Of a stretch of DNA of 32,960 bases, positions 5,883 to 28,818 are shown in pieces (within the stretch, counting starts at the first letter, position 1; each line of letters opens with the position of its first letter). The notes below the pieces were generated by a model. The model ran no database searches. It saw only the letters and a list, made by a program, of their open reading frames with translations, and was not told the origin of the DNA. Location of the stretch: IMG/VR virus record IMGVR_UViG_3300045988_088052. The stretch is one strand, 5' to 3'. Source of the DNA: a virus. The translations under genes were made by a program, and so were the position numbers.

Positions 5883-6460
5883 GCATTTTCCTCCATCATC
5901 CGCTCCGCCAGCGCTATGTCATAGCTGGGCAGCTGCTTTACCTCGGCCATACCGGCCAGCTTTGCCCGGATATCCGCAGGCAGGGCTTGCATTTTTCGCT
6001 CGCTCTCCTGCCTTGCCCGGTAGCTGCGCATAAAGTTGGACTGCACCACGCTCTGCACTGTCCCGGTGTCCATGCTGGCCCATTCCCGCAGCTGGGATGG
6101 GTGTCCTACCAATCGTTGTAGGTTCTCCGGCAGGGCTGCAAACTCTTTCTCGCTGTTGTAGCCGCTGTTCCGCAGGGCCTTTGCAATCAGCGCCCATGCT
6201 TCCCCCTCGGAGAGTTCCGCCGGGCGGCTGATCTCCCCGATGCTGGCGATAATAGCCCCAATATGCGGGGGGAAACCCTTGCGGTCGCTGGCAATGTGGG
6301 ACTTAACCGCCGCTGCCACAAGGTTAGCCGGGTAGTCTGCCAGCATCTCCGACCACAGGTTCACCACCGCTTCCGCATCCTGCCGCTTCATGTCCCTGTA
6401 GTAGCCGGGGTATGCGGCCTTGAGGATGGACATAACAGCCAATGTTTCAGTACGGTTCAT
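5879..6460 (-). CDS. G39P-like replicative helicase loader/inhibitor
   Basis: MNRTETLAVMSILKAAYPGYY...VNLWSEMLADYP...FPPHIGAII resembles the SPP1 G39P N-terminal family. ATG at 6460 follows AGGAGGAGGG. Confidence 0.55.
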   Translation of the reverse strand: MNRTETLAVMSILKAAYPGYYRDMKRQDAEAVVNLWSEMLADYPANLVAAAVKSHIASDRKGFPPHIGAIIASIGEISRPAELSEGEAWALIAKALRNSGYNSEKEFAALPENLQRLVGHPSQLREWASMDTGTVQSVVQSNFMRSYRARQESERKMQALPADIRAKLAGMAEVKQLPSYDIALAERMMEENA

Positions 6461-7106
6461 GTTGTCCCTCCTCCTGCAGCATCTGCAAAAATACATTGTC
6501 GGTCCCACCAGCAGACTTGTCGGCTTTCAACGGGTAAACATCCTGCCAGCAGCGCTTAACGCTCTGATCGAGAATAAGTCCCTTGGTGTGGTTGTCCCCC
6601 GGTGCCAGCCGTTCCAGCTCATTCAGGATCATCTTTGCGGCACGATCAGTGAGGGGCTTTTTGATTTTCTTGCGCATCTCACAAAAGCCGTTCCAGTTCT
6701 CCATCAAGGCTTCCGGGACATCCACACGCCCCCTTGGGGGGGTAGGGGGGGTATTATTCCCGGAGGGAATATTTTCTTTGTCTTTGTCTTTGTCATTGTC
6801 TTTGTCTTGGCTTTTCTGGGTTTTTGAAAAACCCGCTGGGTTTTTTGGGTTACATTGGGTTTTCTTCGGCCTACCGCCCTTGGAACCGTTTTCCCTGCTT
6901 GTTTTGGCTCTTCCTTCGCATTCAGCAGCCATCCGGTCTATTTGCAACTTTGCTACCGGCCATATAAAACGCTCGTTTCCCCGGAAATCGGGGGCTGCGC
7001 CCGTCTCTGCATATTTCAGCATAGCCGTGAACAGCCGCCCTCTCTCCGCATCTCCGAGTTCCTCCATGGCATCTGCAAAGTCTGTAAAGACTTTAAGGTA
7101 CTTCAT
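6447..7106 (-). CDS. Replisome-organiser / DnaD-domain-like replication protein
   Basis: The N-terminus (FADAMEELGDAERGRLFTAMLKYAETG) is joined to a C-terminal WNGFCEMRKKIKKPLTDRAAKMILNELERL domain by a low-complexity DKDNDKDKDK/PPTPP linker. Confidence 0.55.
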   Translation of the reverse strand: MKYLKVFTDFADAMEELGDAERGRLFTAMLKYAETGAAPDFRGNERFIWPVAKLQIDRMAAECEGRAKTSRENGSKGGRPKKTQCNPKNPAGFSKTQKSQDKDNDKDKDKENIPSGNNTPPTPPRGRVDVPEALMENWNGFCEMRKKIKKPLTDRAAKMILNELERLAPGDNHTKGLILDQSVKRCWQDVYPLKADKSAGGTDNVFLQMLQEEGQHEPY

Positions 7107-9017: not shown

Positions 9018-9233
9018 TTAATATCTGTCTGGTTCTTCATCAAAGTACCTGTCAGCATCCGCATCGCTGGCGTCAAAACGCTTAACACAGTTTTCACAGC
9101 CAATGACCATTCCGTCCTTAATGTAAATTGTCTCGTTGATCTCGCAGCCGCACTCCGGGCAGATGTGCGGCTTATCATCGTAGTTATCCACCCAGCTCGG
9201 GATGGGCCTATCCGGGATATCGTATGGGTTCAT
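9018..9233 (-). CDS. Hypothetical zinc-ribbon protein (71 aa)
   Basis: CPECGC...CENC motifs with an acidic tail. Confidence 0.55.
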   Translation of the reverse strand: MNPYDIPDRPIPSWVDNYDDKPHICPECGCEINETIYIKDGMVIGCENCVKRFDASDADADRYFDEEPDRY

Positions 9234-10168
9234 GCTTCCACGACCTCCCCATTTTCCAGTTTGTAAAATACCCCAGGTTTTATAATCTCACCATCTACCT
9301 TTACAGCTCGCACCTCTTTAATTGGGAAAGTATCACCATTCCAGCCACACCTCTCGGTTAGGACGAGCCAGCATCCAATGGCGCCGGATGCCTTACTATC
9401 AACTCCGGTGACGATTGCAATAGACTCCTTCCCATCAACGGTGGCTGCGCTACGGTAGCCGGTGTTGGTGGCTGCACTACGGTCGCCGGTGTTGGTGGCT
9501 GCACTACAGCAGCCGGTGTTGGTGGCTGCACTACAGCAGCCGGTGTTGGTGGCTGCACTACAGCAGCCGGTGTTGGTGGCTGCGCTACGGTAGCCGGTGT
9601 TGGTGGCTGCACTACAGTCGCCGGTGTTGGTGGCTGCGCTACGGTAGCCGGTGTTGGTGGCTGCACTACGGTTGCCGGTGTTGGTGGCTGCACTACAGTC
9701 GCCGGTGTTGGTGGCTGCACTACGGTTGCCGGTGTTGGTGGCTGCACTACAGTCGCCGGTGTTGGTGGCTGCGCTACGGTAGCCGGTGTTGGTGGCTGCG
9801 CTACGGTAGCCGGTGTTGGTGGCTGCGCTATAGTTGCCAGTCTGAGTTTTGCTGCTCTCGGCTTTTTCTTTTATGTACTCAACCGCAGCTTTTACAATAC
9901 CAGCGATACCGATTTCCGCCCGGAGCTTTATTTTCGTTCCAGCTCGCTTGCTGTCACCTTCTTCTTCTTCGTCCGTCACACCATCGAGGTCAGCCACGAA
10001 AAACCGACTGTCGGCCGGTGCGTAATGGGCGAACACATCCAGCGGATACTCGCATCCATGGAAACCTTTATTGCATAGTTTCGCTTCCTCCTCCACATAT
10101 TCTTTGCCAAGATCGAATTTGAGGCCTCGGCATTTCATGTCCTTGTCGGTTCCCTTGTAGACGATCAC
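9230..10168 (-). CDS. Repeat protein: conserved N-domain, about 15 x 9-aa SAATNTGxx repeats, C-domain
   Basis: GTG start lies 7 nt after GGGGAGGG. The N-terminus (KCRGLKFDLGKEY...LCNKGFHGCEYPLDVFAHY) recurs in uncharacterised phage proteins, from memory. The central 135 aa are near-perfect nonapeptide repeats. Confidence 0.75.
   Translation of the reverse strand: MIVYKGTDKDMKCRGLKFDLGKEYVEEEAKLCNKGFHGCEYPLDVFAHYAPADSRFFVADLDGVTDEEEEGDSKRAGTKIKLRAEIGIAGIVKAAVEYIKEKAESSKTQTGNYSAATNTGYRSAATNTGYRSAATNTGDCSAATNTGNRSAATNTGDCSAATNTGNRSAATNTGYRSAATNTGDCSAATNTGYRSAATNTGCCSAATNTGCCSAATNTGCCSAATNTGDRSAATNTGYRSAATVDGKESIAIVTGVDSKASGAIGCWLVLTERCGWNGDTFPIKEVRAVKVDGEIIKPGVFYKLENGEVVEA
9434..9838. repeat. 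27-bp tandem repeat, about 15 units (coding)
   Basis: The minus-strand unit is GGC-[TAC/GAC/AAC/TGC]-[CGT/TGT]-AG[C/T]-GCAGCCACCAACACC. All other positions are invariant across units. Confidence 0.9.
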
Positions 10169-10539
10169 TTGACATCCCTCCCCTTATCGTGTATAGTTGT
10201 GGTGGTGGTTGGGTCTCCGTCTCTGACGGGGGCCTTTCTTTTTTTGTACTCCTCCTGCTGGCGGCGGATACAGCGCAGAACCCATGCTGTGAAGTTGCAG
10301 TAACCCATTTCGATAAGCTGCTGACGGAACTCCGCCATATTCACATAACCCAAAGGAATACGCACAGACAGCTTATAGTTTGCTTCCCGCTTCCTGCCGG
10401 GCTTGTCCGCTATCAGCGCTTCCGCTTCGGCGGTGCGCCGAACTCCGTAATACTCCGGTCGTTTGCACATACTGTCCAGCGGCTTTGTGTAGCCGGGGAA
10501 TACCTCCCGGATGGCCGCTATCCTCTCGTTCTGCTCCAT
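10165..10539 (-). CDS. Hypothetical protein (124 aa)
   Basis: ORF with ATG start, coupled to the downstream GTG (GTGA overlap). No family recognised. Confidence 0.55.
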   Translation of the reverse strand: MEQNERIAAIREVFPGYTKPLDSMCKRPEYYGVRRTAEAEALIADKPGRKREANYKLSVRIPLGYVNMAEFRQQLIEMGYCNFTAWVLRCIRRQQEEYKKRKAPVRDGDPTTTTTIHDKGRDVK

Positions 10540-11430: not shown

Positions 11431-11459
11431 ATTATAGTGTAAACATACGCAACAGTCAA
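11431..11459 (-). promoter_or_regulatory. Consensus-like sigma-70 promoter facing left (early lytic)
   Basis: On the minus strand, TTGACT (11459..11454) is followed by a 17-nt spacer and TATAAT (11436..11431). Confidence 0.5.
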
Positions 11460-13120: not shown

Positions 13121-13144
13121 ACCGCCCTCGTTGCCGGGGGCGGT
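13121..13144 (-). terminator. GC-rich hairpin with its U-tract on the minus strand
   Basis: ACCGCCC (13121..13127) pairs with GGGCGGT (13138..13144). The T-run (GTTTTTTTATTTTT) follows only in the minus orientation. Confidence 0.4.
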
Positions 13145-13164
13145 TGTCTATCAGGAGGAGAAAA

Positions 13165-14250
13165 ATGAAAGAAAGGACAAATACGGCAAAGTGGCTTGAG
13201 AAGCAGAACCGCTGGCAGATCGCCGTCCAGAAAGATGGCGTAAGAAAAACATTTACAAGCAGTCGGCCGGGAAGGGAAGGGCAGAGGGAAGCGAACCGAA
13301 AAGCAGATGACTGGCTGGCATCAGGCATCTGCGGGACGAAGCTGCACCTATCGGAGCTGCACGAAAGCTATATGGAGCAGCTTAAAATTCGGACTTCGCA
13401 ATCGAATTGGCGACCGCAGGAAAGCCGCTGGAAAACATGGATTGACCCAAGGATAGGCCACCTAAAGGCAGATGCACTTTGCGATGGGATTTTGCAAAAG
13501 GTTATCGACTATGCATACAATAACGGGAAATTGTCGAAGAAGTATCTGCAAAACATCCGTGCTGACATGGTTTCTTTCTGCAAATATTTGCGGAAAATGA
13601 AAGTAACCGGCTTTACCCCGGAAGACATAACAATTCCAAAGGGAGCCCCCGTTGGCGTTCGCAACATTTTGCAGCCGGAGGACATTGTGACACTTTTCTC
13701 CGTTGATACGACGATCTACAAGGGTAAATTGGTAAAAGACCCATATATAAATGCTTATCGCCTTGAGGTTTTGACCGGACTGCGGCCGGGGGAATTGCGC
13801 GGTATCATGCGAAACGATTTCAAACAAGGCAGATTGGAGGTAAGGCGGTCGATAAACGAGGATAATGAAATCACTACAGGCAAAAACGAAAATGCGATAC
13901 GCAGCGTTTATTTGGGCGAAATCGCAGAAGCGATTGTAAAAGATCAAGCATCCAAGTCAAACGGCCTGTATCTATTCCAAATGCCGACAACAGAAACCTA
14001 TCGCAAGTTTTTCCAAAGATATTGCAACGCAAACGGGATTCCGAAAACGACACCATACGAGCTGCGACACACTTTCGTTTCTCTTGCACAGTCCCTCCCG
14101 GAGGGATGGGTAAAGCAATTGGTCGGACACTCCAAGAGTATGGACACATTCGGGGTTTACGGTCACGCTGTGTCCGGGATGGATCGGCAAATAACCAGCG
14201 CACTTGATGGCGTGTTTACATCAATTCTTGGCCAGCAGGGAAAAAAGTGA
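13165..14250 (+). CDS. int: Tyrosine recombinase / phage integrase
   Basis: C-terminal catalytic motifs are present (GLRPGELRG..., ELRHTFVSLA, LVGHSKSMDTFGVYGH). ATG at 13165 follows GGAGGAG. Confidence 0.92.
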   Translation: MKERTNTAKWLEKQNRWQIAVQKDGVRKTFTSSRPGREGQREANRKADDWLASGICGTKLHLSELHESYMEQLKIRTSQSNWRPQESRWKTWIDPRIGHLKADALCDGILQKVIDYAYNNGKLSKKYLQNIRADMVSFCKYLRKMKVTGFTPEDITIPKGAPVGVRNILQPEDIVTLFSVDTTIYKGKLVKDPYINAYRLEVLTGLRPGELRGIMRNDFKQGRLEVRRSINEDNEITTGKNENAIRSVYLGEIAEAIVKDQASKSNGLYLFQMPTTETYRKFFQRYCNANGIPKTTPYELRHTFVSLAQSLPEGWVKQLVGHSKSMDTFGVYGHAVSGMDRQITSALDGVFTSILGQQGKK

Positions 14251-26294: not shown

Positions 26295-26544
26295 ACAGCC
26301 GGTTGTTAAGTGCCCACCGGAGCATTCGGGGCATCGCTACCGCCTTTTCTCGGCGCTGCCGGTAAAGGTAGGCGGCGTACATCTCCACCAGCATGGCATC
26401 GCCGGTGCTGGTGGAGAGTACAATCCCTTCGGTAGCAATATACTCCTTGGCAGACGCGATCAGCGCCGAAAGGTAATCGTCGAGCGCTGTTGTGGAAAGC
26501 TGCAAATCAACCTTCAAAATCACGAGGATATCGGCGTCTGTCAT
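26272..26544 (-). CDS. gp6-like head-tail connector protein
   Basis: MTDADILVILKVDLQLSTTALDDYLSALIASAKEYI is the typical gp6-like N-terminus. Confidence 0.65.
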   Translation of the reverse strand: MTDADILVILKVDLQLSTTALDDYLSALIASAKEYIATEGIVLSTSTGDAMLVEMYAAYLYRQRREKAVAMPRMLRWALNNRLFEQKAGG

Positions 26545-26558
26545 GCTTTAACCCCCTT

Positions 26559-28244
26559 TTAGGAAGCCTTGGTTACATTGACGGTGTAAACAACAGTCTC
26601 GTTACCGTTCTTTACAGTGACGGTCAGAGGATGGGCAGTACCATCGGCCAGCCAGGTAACAGTGCCGCCGTTCTTCACATTGGCGTTGTTGTAGGCAATA
26701 GCGACCTGCGCACCGGCAACCTCGGTAGTGGCGTTTACTGCAGCAGTCGCAGCGGAAGCGGTAGCGGTGTAGCTCAGCACATCGCCATCAAAAGCAGGGC
26801 TGAGGGACAGGTTTCCAACGGTCAGAGCGGACAGCTTGGCGTTGTTGGCGGTATCAGCCGCAAAGGTCATGGAGGTGGTTACGGAAGCGCCGTTAATGTT
26901 GATCGCCACAAAAGCGCCGGGGATAACGGGCATACCGTCAGCGCGCTCTTTGCCGCGGAATACGGTGTTGTCCTGAATGAACTGAACCTCGCGGGATGCT
27001 TCGATAGTCATGCCGGAGCGCTGCGCCCACAGGTACAGGTCGCCATAGCCGCCAACGATGTCGCCATCGGGGATAAATTCGAGGATTTCCACATCACCGC
27101 CGATGATGGGCATGGTCATACCGTCAAAGGTGACATACCGGCCCAAAGCGGTAGCAAGGATTGCCTTGGACTGCAGAGTAGCCAGGGTCTTGCTATTCAT
27201 AGCCCAGAAGCGCTCGCCGCGGGAATAGCGGGTGAAGGTGTTACCAGCAGCAACAGCCAGCGCAGCCCAGAAAGCCTCGCCGGTAGAAGCGGTGGGAATG
27301 GTGATGATGTTGGAGGTATGCAGGTCAACCCAAGCAGGAGCATTGGCCGGGTAATCGCTAGGCTTGCTCTCCTGTGCCAGACGGGTCACGATACCGAGAG
27401 GCATCTTCTGACCAGCGCCCTTACCGTACAGGATGGCCTTATCCTTGGCAAGGCCGATAGCCTCGGACAGCATCTCGACGATCCAGGAAGCAAGGTTTAC
27501 ATCGTTATCCTCCAGCAGGGAGTTACAAACAGGAACATAACCGGCAACCTTGAAACCGTCGAGGGTGATCTGGTTAAAGCTGAAGGTCAGCTCATTGATA
27601 GCGCCACACATTTCAGTCCAAACGGCCTCGGGGACAGTACCGGCAATGGTCTGACGGGCTTCGCCATTGACATTGCGGATGCGGACACGACGCATCAGCT
27701 TGGAGTAGCGATACATATTCTCGGCAATGAGCTCGAGGAATACAACAGGGATGGTCAGCTCGCCACCGGTGATATCTCTCTTGCTGTGGGCAGCGTTACG
27801 CAGCTCCGCAAAGAAGGTCTGCACATCGGGCTGGGCTACGATAGCGTCACGCTGCTCCTTGGGGAGAGCGTCAAAGGCGCGTACATTCATAGGGAGGGAG
27901 CGAATGTTGATGGTATTCATAGTAAAATCATTCCTTTCGTCTTTCTTTTTGGGTTCGTGGTCAGCTTTTGGTGGATCTTTTTCAGCGTTTTCCAAATCCT
28001 CCTCAAGGCCCTTAATTTCTGCGGACAGCTTTTCCTTTTCGGCGTTGTGGGCATCCTGATCCTCGGTAAATTGGTTCATTGCATCCTCAACTGCCTGCTG
28101 CTCCTCTTCGGTAGTGGCTTCGCCAATAGCCTTTTCGATTTCAGCGGAGCGGGTTGCAAATTCGGCGTCCTTGGCGATCAGCGCATCAAAAGCGGCCCTT
28201 TTCAGTTCCAGCTTTTTGGCGATCATGATGGATTTCAGTGCCAT
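26559..28244 (-). CDS. HK97-type major capsid protein with C-terminal cadherin/Ig-like beta-sandwich domain
   Basis: An N-terminal coiled-coil delta-like region (aa 1-105) is followed by an HK97-fold core ending about aa 450. A C-terminal extension of about 104 aa begins LSALTVGNLSLSPAFDGDVLSYTATA. Confidence 0.88.
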   Translation of the reverse strand: MALKSIMIAKKLELKRAAFDALIAKDAEFATRSAEIEKAIGEATTEEEQQAVEDAMNQFTEDQDAHNAEKEKLSAEIKGLEEDLENAEKDPPKADHEPKKKDERNDFTMNTINIRSLPMNVRAFDALPKEQRDAIVAQPDVQTFFAELRNAAHSKRDITGGELTIPVVFLELIAENMYRYSKLMRRVRIRNVNGEARQTIAGTVPEAVWTEMCGAINELTFSFNQITLDGFKVAGYVPVCNSLLEDNDVNLASWIVEMLSEAIGLAKDKAILYGKGAGQKMPLGIVTRLAQESKPSDYPANAPAWVDLHTSNIITIPTASTGEAFWAALAVAAGNTFTRYSRGERFWAMNSKTLATLQSKAILATALGRYVTFDGMTMPIIGGDVEILEFIPDGDIVGGYGDLYLWAQRSGMTIEASREVQFIQDNTVFRGKERADGMPVIPGAFVAININGASVTTSMTFAADTANNAKLSALTVGNLSLSPAFDGDVLSYTATASAATAAVNATTEVAGAQVAIAYNNANVKNGGTVTWLADGTAHPLTVTVKNGNETVVYTVNVTKAS

Positions 28245-28245
28245 A

Positions 28246-28818
28246 TCAGCACTCCTTTCTTAGTTTTTTGAGAGCGTCGGCTCTCCATTGGTCGAGCTTG
28301 CGCTCATTGATCTTTTCAAGGTCTTTTTTCCTGGCTTCTACCATGGTGTCCTCATAGGCCGGGAAGGTTACGACCGATACCTCATACAGCTTGACTTTGC
28401 GAATTGTCCACACAGTTGTGCCATCCGGCCGGATTTCGGTTTCCTCGTCAAGGATGTCAAAACCGAAAGAACACTGGGAAACATCTCCACGCTTTACGCG
28501 CTCATAGGCGTTCATAGCGTCTTGGTCGGCTTGGTTTACAAGGATAGACCCCCAAAGGCCCAAATCATCAACGCGGAGGGTCAGTGTACCGGCTGTAGTT
28601 CGTCCGAGTACCATTGTGGTATCATGGTTGACCAGCGCCCGGATATCATCACCGAGGGTGCCGTCAAAGGCCCCGCGGTCAATACGCTCAATGGCCTTAT
28701 CCCACATCCGGTACTCACCGGTAAAGGTTGCGAAATAGCCCTCAATGTAAAGGTTTCCATCGGCAGCGCGTGTCTTAAAGTCGCCGCTGCGGCTGATTGC
28801 CTGTCTTGCTCCTACCAT
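28246..28818 (-). CDS. HK97-family prohead protease
   Basis: The pattern is YIEGYFATF...RALVNHD...VLGRT...L.L. The gene lies between portal and capsid genes. Confidence 0.85.
   Translation of the reverse strand: MVGARQAISRSGDFKTRAADGNLYIEGYFATFTGEYRMWDKAIERIDRGAFDGTLGDDIRALVNHDTTMVLGRTTAGTLTLRVDDLGLWGSILVNQADQDAMNAYERVKRGDVSQCSFGFDILDEETEIRPDGTTVWTIRKVKLYEVSVVTFPAYEDTMVEARKKDLEKINERKLDQWRADALKKLRKEC

Follow-up and report, generated by a model that had tools for sequence, protein, structure and literature searches.

An IMG/VR virus record, IMGVR_UViG_3300045988_088052 (32,960 nucleotides, analysed over its whole length and termed the window), encodes a 312-residue early phage protein whose central part is an array of near-identical nonapeptides, x-x-S-A-A-T-N-T-G, that differ from one another at two adjacent residues. 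Here we show that this array forms the hypervariable part of an early protein widespread among phages, that of the ES18 gp53 family, that its units are kept near-identical in DNA by unequal recombination or slippage with gain and loss of whole units, and that non-synonymous changes in the two variable codons (termed tip codons, from their modelled position at the tips of turns) are retained about nine-fold above the synonymous baseline. As to function, we give roughly even weight, for and against, to the reading that the array is a fast-evolving specificity surface carried by an RIIB-like early protein and acting in phage-host conflict, and we set this reading against several rivals, each of which we consider less likely.

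Anatomy of the repeat array

Tandem Repeats Finder returned a single 27-nt array in the window, at 9440..9830 (14.5 copies, 93% matches, score 635). In the frame of the open reading frame (ORF) at 9230..10168 on the minus strand, this array resolves into fourteen units at 9835..9458 (9458..9835, minus strand), each consisting of two variable codons followed by an identical core, S-A-A-T-N-T-G, encoded by AGC or AGT and then GCA GCC ACC AAC ACC GGC; a fifteenth unit, YRSAATVDG (9457..9431), is degenerate. A preliminary description of this DNA, made from the sequence alone, had placed about 15 near-perfect coding units with variation in two residues at 9434..9838; these are the same 405 nt in another register, G-x-x-SAATNT, and the repeat finder and the in-frame reading agree with it. 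Its order of dipeptides was also recovered identically over all 15 units: NY YR YR DC NR DC NR YR DC YR CC CC CC DR YR. The nucleotides that vary between units are positions 1 and 2 of the first variable codon and position 1 of the second; position 2 of the second codon departs only in unit 1 (TAT), a codon missing from the earlier list of variants, which had correctly recorded a synonymous AGC/AGT switch linked to unit type. The 21-nt core occurs 14 times at no more than one mismatch, against no occurrence in 100 shuffles, has no other copy in the window, and is invariant across the array in its AAC codon and its other adenines.

After unit 15 the nine-residue period is kept, in the translation and in the spacing of modelled strands, by two more degenerate units, KESIAIVTG and VDSKASGAI, and the three terminal units together close the array (9377..9457, minus strand). 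This terminal cap (..SAATVDG KESIAIVTG VDSKASG) is kept in 120 relatives. Other ORFs overlie the array in alternative frames, at 9358..9747 (minus strand; 129 residues, 'QPPTPATVV...'), 9462..9593 (plus strand) and 9651..9782 (plus strand), the last two with 43 residues each ('LVAALR...'); they are mechanical by-products of the repeat and non-genic, since only the SAATNTG frame is conserved with synonymous variation.

Concerted evolution of units and selection on two residues

A census of units in the closest relatives (120 relatives, 1,561 units) found essentially no variation at S3, A5 and G9 and very little at A4, T6, N7 and T8, and showed that the two variable positions draw on a small alphabet: D, N or Y at the first, and R, C, Y, W or Q at the second. 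The lengths of the relatives' proteins range from 240 to 339 residues in steps of exactly nine. Across phages the core residues are kept through many synonymous codons (serine as AGC, TCA, TCC or TCG among 508 units), and selection therefore acts on the peptide rather than on the DNA. Within a gene the 21-nt core is 91-100% identical, and wholly so in 23 of 42 arrays, whereas between genes its identity averages 82% and falls as low as 62%, a contrast that indicates concerted evolution.

At positions 1 and 2 of the two variable codons, heterozygosity within arrays reaches 0.36; in the core it is 0.041 at synonymous third positions and 0.011 at positions 1 and 2. The tip codons exceed the synonymous core about nine-fold, and they do so in every one of the 36 arrays (Wilcoxon p=1.7e-7). 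Only two nucleotides from the most variable site, the synonymous third position of variable codon 1 has a heterozygosity of 0.056, at the baseline, which argues against a regional mutational hot spot. This pattern of substitution is strong evidence that the two tip residues are under selection.

The order of units is statistically random: neighbouring units are no more alike than in shuffled arrays (family-wide, identity at lags 1-6 equals the shuffled value), mutual-information z-scores between neighbours do not exceed 2.9, and unit number has no parity preference (59 even, 56 odd). The preliminary description had taken DC-NR-DC-NR and CC-CC-CC in the window array for higher-order duplications that imply unequal recombination. 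Indels of whole units and blocks, and gain or loss of single units, fit unequal recombination or slippage; the two motifs themselves, judged against the whole family, are anecdotal.

The array is a conserved trait of a large phage family

Residues 1-93 of the window protein match DUF7666 (PF24703) over profile positions 1-94 of 95 with 95.7 bits, passing the gathering score (cut-off 27); the whole protein matches PHROG 4433 (E=1e-100) and its C-terminus matches PHROG 27197. The full-length profile match and the same order of domains make it a member of PHROG 4433, the ES18 gp53-like group, and tblastn alignments extend over the full length of ES18 gp53 and its counterparts in SEN22, phi2 and Montmirail. 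With the ES18 gp53 family it shares the DUF7666 N-terminal domain, the x-x-SAATNTG array, a C-terminal beta domain and an early-left position, at 45-55% full-length identity and with no essential difference. An identical protein is already on record (P0001).

Relatives were found by tblastn in 182 phage records, all below 60% identity and nearly all annotated as hypothetical. They include Salmonella phages ES18 (gp53), SEN22 and S135, Pseudomonas phages phi2 and YA3, Blautia phage Montmirail, phages of Vibrio, Ralstonia and Acinetobacter, and 115 Rheinheimera phages; hosts of the family at large span Proteobacteria, Bacillota, Bacteroidota and cyanobacteria. An exhaustive HMMER scan retrieved 3,763 clusters (50% identity) at E<=1e-3 and 515 at E<=1e-30. 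Judged by these matches, DUF7666 / PHROG 4433 is a very large, uncharacterised phage family. Homology searches thus did not place the protein in a well-characterised family of known function, the result that the preliminary description would have taken as a refutation: the family is catalogued only as DUF7666 / PHROG 4433, and PHROG 4433 and PHROG 27197 alike carry no assigned function. The array, which had been treated as the peculiarity of one gene, is instead a conserved trait of a family whose members number in the thousands. Of 150 diverse representatives, about 100 have a core that is uniform per protein, with the two residues after the glycine variable; the core itself is lineage-specific (SAATNTG, SVASNSG, GAASATG or SSAATSG). 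Arrays in other lineages are old and diverged, following the pattern G-x-x-S-[AVI]-A-x-N-T-G. Longer members of the family yielded no informative fused domain.

Two annotations of homologous genes deserve mention. In Vibrio phage 1.185.O (MG592551, 27868-28674) four 'CRISPR_spacer' features are annotated inside the gene, which may be an artefact of a repeat finder or real spacer matches to the repeated core. In Salmonella phage Emek (JQ806763, 27893-28291) the homologue is annotated 'similar to ES18 gp53 with frameshift'.

Turnover among close relatives and cultured isolates

Even where the flanking domains are 100% identical, alleles are set apart by block indels and by single switches of dipeptide (DW to DR, for example), and arrays are essentially unalignable already at 98% flank identity. 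In loci of the same lineage the neighbouring genes are mostly 90-100% identical, which makes the array the hypervariable spot of the operon.

Cultured phages show the same architecture with different contents. The array DNA of ES18 comprises 10 units with dipeptides DQ/NW/YQ, that of phi2 15 units with the core SAASNTG and dipeptides YQ/NR/DY, and that of Montmirail 15 units with the core GASSNTG; in one lineage of Salmonella phages the gene products have 219, 282 and 377 residues. The Barba phages of Rheinheimera carry a pentapeptide array, N-T-G-x-x, of 27 copies with the same dipeptide alphabet. Among 115 near-identical Barba isolates, the gene has six distinct single-nucleotide polymorphism (SNP) sites, five of them in the variable codons that account for 16.6% of its length (p=6e-4). 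Each of the five is non-synonymous and exchanges one residue of the alphabet for another (Q to R, N to D, R to W), and two isolates differ by exactly one unit; micro-evolution in these isolates is confined to tips and unit number. In Rheinheimera phage Barba30A, gp041 (L085:2971-3948) consists of a DUF7666 N-terminal domain followed by the NTGxx array and is annotated 'pentapeptide' by its depositors, and a genuine PF00805 pentapeptide-repeat gene lies two genes downstream.

Short reads bear on how far array lengths can be trusted, and the preliminary description had warned of mis-assembly on the ground that the array is longer than any short-read k-mer. The risk is real, in that related contigs break in the array, and smaller than implied for the window array itself, in which exact internal repeats extend to 72 nt at most and every k-mer of 77 or more is unique. 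The variable codons cut exact repeats to no more than 72 nt, and thus reads of 100-150 nt or assemblers with large k would resolve the order of units. Many related contigs end inside the array (loci L019, L025, L034, L039, L046, L051 and L054-L056), and one contig has its array split over both ends, loci L014 and L074 being the two ends of IMGVR_UViG_3300029619_000018. The array is a recurrent breakpoint of short-read assembly at which circular genomes have been opened, and copy numbers from short-read metagenomes are uncertain on that account. In MK511048 and related Pseudomonas phage records the match likewise lies at the record end (61155-61772). Complete Escherichia coli genomes, checked for long-read evidence, did not contain the lineage.

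Predicted structure of the array and the constant domains

An AlphaFold2 model of the full protein has a mean predicted local distance difference test score (pLDDT) of 70.5, made up of about 85-90 in the N-terminal domain, about 80-88 in the C-terminal domain and 45-67 in the array. As modelled, each unit comprises a five-residue strand, A-A-T-N-T, and a four-residue turn, G-x-x-S, with the variable pair at the tip of the turn. Searched with Foldseek against the Protein Data Bank (PDB), the whole model had no significant neighbour, and its weak neighbours were all beta-solenoids (AlbG, CAP/CARP, pectate-lyase-like proteins and autotransporters). The earlier suggestion of a beta-solenoid displaying a variable stripe is borne out in part: strand and turn, variable tips and solenoid neighbours agree with it, while at this pLDDT the fold itself is not singled out. 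The arrays are about charge-neutral (mean -0.7, pI 8.4).

The constant N-terminal domain (residues 1-108; 9845..10168, minus strand) is predicted to combine the DUF7666 fold with a long helix. K5, G6, C13, C32, G35, H37, P42 and K74 are invariant in it and C39 is 94% conserved; modelled alone with AlphaFold2 it reaches a pLDDT of 96.6 and a predicted TM-score of 0.87. The C-terminal small beta domain (residues 265-312; 9233..9376, minus strand) lies within the PHROG 27197 match. Against predicted viral structures (Foldseek, BFVD) the N-terminal domain matches other DUF7666 proteins, giant-virus ones included. A DUF7666-like fold occurs there in proteins of Megavirus, Mimivirus, Tupanvirus and Marseillevirus annotated as ankyrin-repeat or DUF4116 proteins, which likewise pair a constant domain with a repeat array.

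Likeness of the N-terminal domain to T4 RIIB

Foldseek also matched the N-terminal domain to many predicted RIIB structures, with query-normalised TM-scores of 0.60-0.70, a probability of 1.0 and E-values of 4e-4 to 1e-2. A profile alignment of DUF7666 with the C-terminal domain of T4 RIIB, a conserved domain precomputed as Pfam PF26926, extends over 86 columns and lines up every DUF7666 signature with a counterpart in RIIB: YKG with WKV, Cys13 with Cys, GK with GK, CxxGFHxC with CxxGLHxC, SR with SR, and dsK with nAK. The profile-profile score is 24.3, compared with 12.5 +/- 2.9 for column shuffles, and an RIIB profile hidden Markov model places 89% of DUF7666 domains beyond the 95th percentile of decoy scores. 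Like the window protein, T4 RIIB is an early, non-structural phage protein, and the two have in common the signature C..GK..CxxG[FL]HxC..SR..K. On these grounds the N-terminal domain is probably a distant homologue of the RIIB C-terminal domain.

Other routes between the two families returned little. Neither phage PspYZU05 nor tblastn was productive as a bridge from DUF7666 to RIIB, hhalign in global mode gave a meaningless end overlap, and the RIIB C-terminal fragment used as a database query returned only fragments. T4 RIIB, the sole RIIB sequence examined, is without a repeat array. The N-terminus of T4 rIIB (L108:1466-2404) has matches to helix-turn-helix (HTH) families just below threshold (HTH_7, 23.6 bits against 23.8).

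Proposed role and competing explanations

Homogenised by recombination or slippage while whole units are gained and lost, the array presents through its tip codons many combinations of side chains, all from the alphabet of D/N/Y followed by R/C/Y/W/Q. If it does act as a specificity surface in phage-host conflict, the resulting stripe of tips would bind a host factor or evade one, and the constant N-terminal domain, with its Cys/Cys/His/Cys signature, would be the RIIB-like effector or anchor that carries the stripe. Made early, from a leftward operon directly upstream of Sak, NinB and SSB, the protein would counter an abortive-infection or exclusion system, or escape that system's sensor. RIIB, also called the 'protector from prophage-induced early lysis', counters RexAB and is the classical factor that T-even phages need on RexAB-carrying cells, and it triggers a CARD/NLR-like gasdermin defence from which phages escape by mutating RIIB (bioRxiv 10.1101/2023.05.28.542683).

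A number of observations count against this proposal. Sensor escape alone would not need the units of one array to differ. In PADLOC no family matched the window protein at E<=1, for which reason we rejected a known defence-system protein; NCBIfam returned only compositional, sub-threshold matches; and we found no description in the literature of a function for ES18 gp53, DUF7666 or phrog_4433. With the array modelled at low confidence, a solenoid, a beta-meander and an oligomeric helix are not separable. The N-terminal model has no neighbour in the PDB (best match E=0.84), and the remote-homology check of the N- and C-terminal domains separately, which the preliminary description had advised, led to no well-characterised family among solved structures, in which neither the whole protein nor the N-domain or C-domain profile has a sequence relative. 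The alignment with RIIB has E-values of 7e-4 to 3.5e-3 in hhalign with probabilities of only 9-26%, and its score was reached by one of 150 shuffles, or one of 40 in an earlier run. The shared domain is C-terminal in T4 RIIB and N-terminal in the window protein; the latter has no HTH match; and no rIIA-like partner was seen in the window, whose gene-strand ORFs of at least 500 residues are the tape-measure, major head and large terminase genes only (a fourth, at 26490..28271 on the plus strand, is antisense to the major head gene). By these three differences, in domain order, HTH region and rIIA partner, the window protein is not a member of the RIIB family. Finally, part of the copy-number variation in metagenomic records could be an assembly artefact.

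Second to the specificity surface, and distinctly less probable, we place pure evasion, in which a solenoid of constant role (spacer, scaffold or oligomerisation) varies at its tips to escape NLR-like sensors. The restriction of variation to predicted exposed turn tips and the fast turnover of the array relative to its flanks would both follow, and RIIB, which the N-terminal domain resembles, is a known trigger of CARD/NLR gasdermin defence. Escape does not require diversity within an array, however, and such diversity stands nine-fold above the neutral baseline in all 36 arrays; nor does it require the narrow alphabet that is common to very distant phages and hosts, which points to a positive functional requirement.

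It is doubtful, though attractive, that each unit's dipeptide reads one subunit of a linear polymer (DNA, RNA or glycan) in the manner of transcription activator-like (TAL) effectors, the repeats of TAL effectors being variable in number, closed by a degenerate last repeat, set between constant flanks and evolving by inter-repeat recombination. The genetics correspond closely, in the near-identical DNA repeats, the variation confined to an adjacent diresidue of small alphabet, the variable number, the degenerate last repeat and the constant flanks. Near-random unit order without coupling of neighbours is what independent units would give, and one alphabet serves both nine-residue and five-residue units. 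D/N/Y with R/Q/W/Y/C are, moreover, residues typical of base or sugar contacts. The repeats of TAL effectors are, however, helical, 33-35 residues long and variable at residues 12 and 13, whereas those described here have nine (or five) residues modelled as strand and turn; TAL effectors are type III secreted effectors and the window protein a cytoplasmic early protein of a phage; and the window protein had no Pfam TAL match and no sequence or fold similarity to TAL effectors, nor any found to a nucleic-acid-binding domain. Array indels between phages with identical flanking genes make a target in the phage's own genome unlikely, the array is about neutral rather than basic, and the parity of unit number is free although two-unit coils would put alternate units on opposite edges. 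No target of such a code was identified. The bolder form of this idea, that phages rewrite an NTG-x-x nonapeptide or pentapeptide array by recombination to retarget a host factor, as programmable recognition on a beta-solenoid, is in our estimate equally doubtful.

No better placed is a neutral origin, under which two unconstrained turn residues, concerted evolution and ordinary mutation would suffice. In its favour, the same two positions are the least conserved in old, non-homogenised arrays, as expected of exposed turns; the residues are largely one mutational step apart (NAC codons at position 1, YRN codons at position 2); and the isolate SNPs are all transitions. We disfavour it on three counts: the nine-fold excess of tip diversity over synonymous diversity, with the synonymous third position of the same codon at baseline; the five non-synonymous and no synonymous changes in the tip codons of isolates; and the persistence of the alphabet despite different codons, including CGC, TAC and CAG of phi2, which are two steps apart. 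Hydrophobic or small residues and stop-adjacent codons are rare as well.

It is very improbable that the array, or its copy number or order, was created by short-read mis-assembly. Contigs and several Pseudomonas phage records do end in it, one contig being split over both ends, and block deletions between alleles with identical flanks resemble products of collapse; the same architecture nevertheless occurs in the independently sequenced ES18, SEN22, phi2, Montmirail and 115 Rheinheimera isolates, no exact repeat of the window array exceeds 72 nt, the frame is unbroken, and the protein sequence of the core is conserved. Least credible of all are variation written by a diversity-generating retroelement, which the NAC codon family (N/D/Y/H) superficially recalls through AAC mutagenesis and which we rejected on finding no reverse transcriptase in the ten large ORFs scanned against PHROGs or Pfam (not all ORFs of at least 150 residues being among them), no further copy of the unit in the 33-kb genome that could be a template and no mutated core adenine, and an acidic DNA mimic of the pentapeptide-repeat kind, suggested by the best (non-significant) fold match, AlbG, and by the annotation of a Rheinheimera homologue, and rejected because the array is about charge-neutral rather than acidic, there being also no Pfam pentapeptide match.

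Were the specificity-surface reading to hold, thousands of temperate and virulent phages would possess a modular, fast-evolving surface whose repeat unit is the smallest yet seen with TAL-like repeat-variable residues, and the family would represent a major, unstudied arena of phage-host conflict and a handle on the long-unsolved RIIB domain. If the tips do spell out a recognition code, their scaffold would offer a compact binding platform that can be engineered. The array is a sensitive strain marker, and a phenotype can be tested directly in phages that are amenable to genetics: ES18 in Salmonella, phi2 and F116-like phages in Pseudomonas aeruginosa, and Montmirail in Blautia.

Comparison with other repeat proteins

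With the nonapeptide beta-rolls of RTX proteins (GGxGxDxUx), which have two units per coil, the array shares a nine-residue tandem period that builds short strands and turns. It is not an RTX repeat: the GGxGxD calcium consensus and a secretion signal are absent, the variable positions differ, and Pfam and NCBIfam gave no match. Pentapeptide-repeat proteins (Qnr, MfpA, AlbG) belong to the beta-solenoid class, and the Rheinheimera sister lineage has a true five-residue repeat, NTGxx; membership in PF00805 was rejected on the lack of A(D/N)LXX, the absence of a match at E<=1, the period of nine and the non-acidic array. We know of no hypervariable diresidue in pentapeptide-repeat proteins. Collagen-like and LPXTG adhesins (NCBIfam SclA/SclB/Lcl) scored 18-23 bits, compositional in nature, against the 325-500 needed, and were discarded. 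Prophage-borne genes of Liberibacter asiaticus reportedly contain coding tandem repeats that vary in number between strains (Zhou and colleagues, 2011, as cited in PMC4249863); we take them to be an unrelated family. Our literature searches found no description of hypervariability at two residues per repeat in DUF7666 arrays; the family had been catalogued before, and the TAL-effector-like restriction of its variation to two residues appears to be new.

Genomic setting and additional observations

The window, of about 33 kb, is a compact temperate siphovirus genome, with an integrase gene (13144..14250), a divergent HTH switch and a leftward early operon, and with large terminase, portal, major head, tape-measure and tail genes. 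Its nearest genomic relative, 82% identical, lies in a metagenome-assembled genome of Absicoccus (gut Bacillota); others lie in Clostridia, Bacteroidales and a Paenibacillus chromosome. The early operon is headed by a sigma-70-like promoter, TTGACT-17-TATAAT (11431..11459, minus strand; 11 of 12 matches), and runs in the order HTH70, HTH91, orf93, orf124, repeat gene, 71-residue zinc-ribbon-like ORF, Sak, NinB, SSB and O-like initiator.

The repeat gene begins with GTG and ends with TGA, and a Shine-Dalgarno-like sequence, GGGGAGGG (10176..10183, minus strand), lies 8 nt upstream of its start. This GTG is supported by the Pfam domain match, which starts at residue 1, and by the N-terminal xxxYKG strand shared among homologues. 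Upstream, the stop of a 124-residue ORF (orf124; 10165..10539, minus strand) overlaps the GTG (GTGA); orf124 has no Pfam or PHROG match and is 71-98% identical in 44 loci of the same lineage. Downstream, the ATG of the 71-residue, Cys-rich, zinc-ribbon-like ORF (9018..9233, minus strand) overlaps the stop of the repeat gene (ATGA). This ORF carries CxxC...CxxC motifs with sub-threshold matches to zinc-binding Pfam families; it has a match in 27 related loci, at 90-100% identity in 25 and at 33-41% in two. The 4-nt overlaps with both neighbours suggest that translation of the repeat gene is coupled to theirs. No partner gene is common to the whole family, as orf124 and the zinc-ribbon ORF are specific to the lineage, the zinc-ribbon ORF being absent beside distant homologues.

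The preliminary description had stressed the early position between regulators and recombination genes, and both the window gene and ES18 gp53 fit it: gp53 belongs to the P_L operon, with the N-like gene 24 on one side and cIII/kil/erf/ssb on the other, which is the ral/sieB/gene-17 slot of lambdoid phages. Of 51 related loci with sufficient flanking sequence, 37 have an SSB homologue encoded downstream in the same orientation. Abortive infection is known to be triggered by single-strand annealing proteins, of which Sak is one, and it is plausible that a counter-measure would be encoded beside Sak.

Two further features of the window were noted. At the junction of orf124 and the repeat gene, antisense to the early operon, 10169..10235 (plus strand) contains a strong promoter-like TTGACA-17-TATAGT (11 of 12 matches) with a terminator-like hairpin directly after it, which may be due to chance or may give rise to a small antisense transcript. 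Within the O-like initiator gene (6447..7106, minus strand), 6736..6808 contains the tandem repeats TCTTTG (5.7 copies) and GGGGGGGTA (two copies), encoding DKDNDKDKDK; these may indicate an iteron-type origin located within the gene, on the pattern of lambda O.

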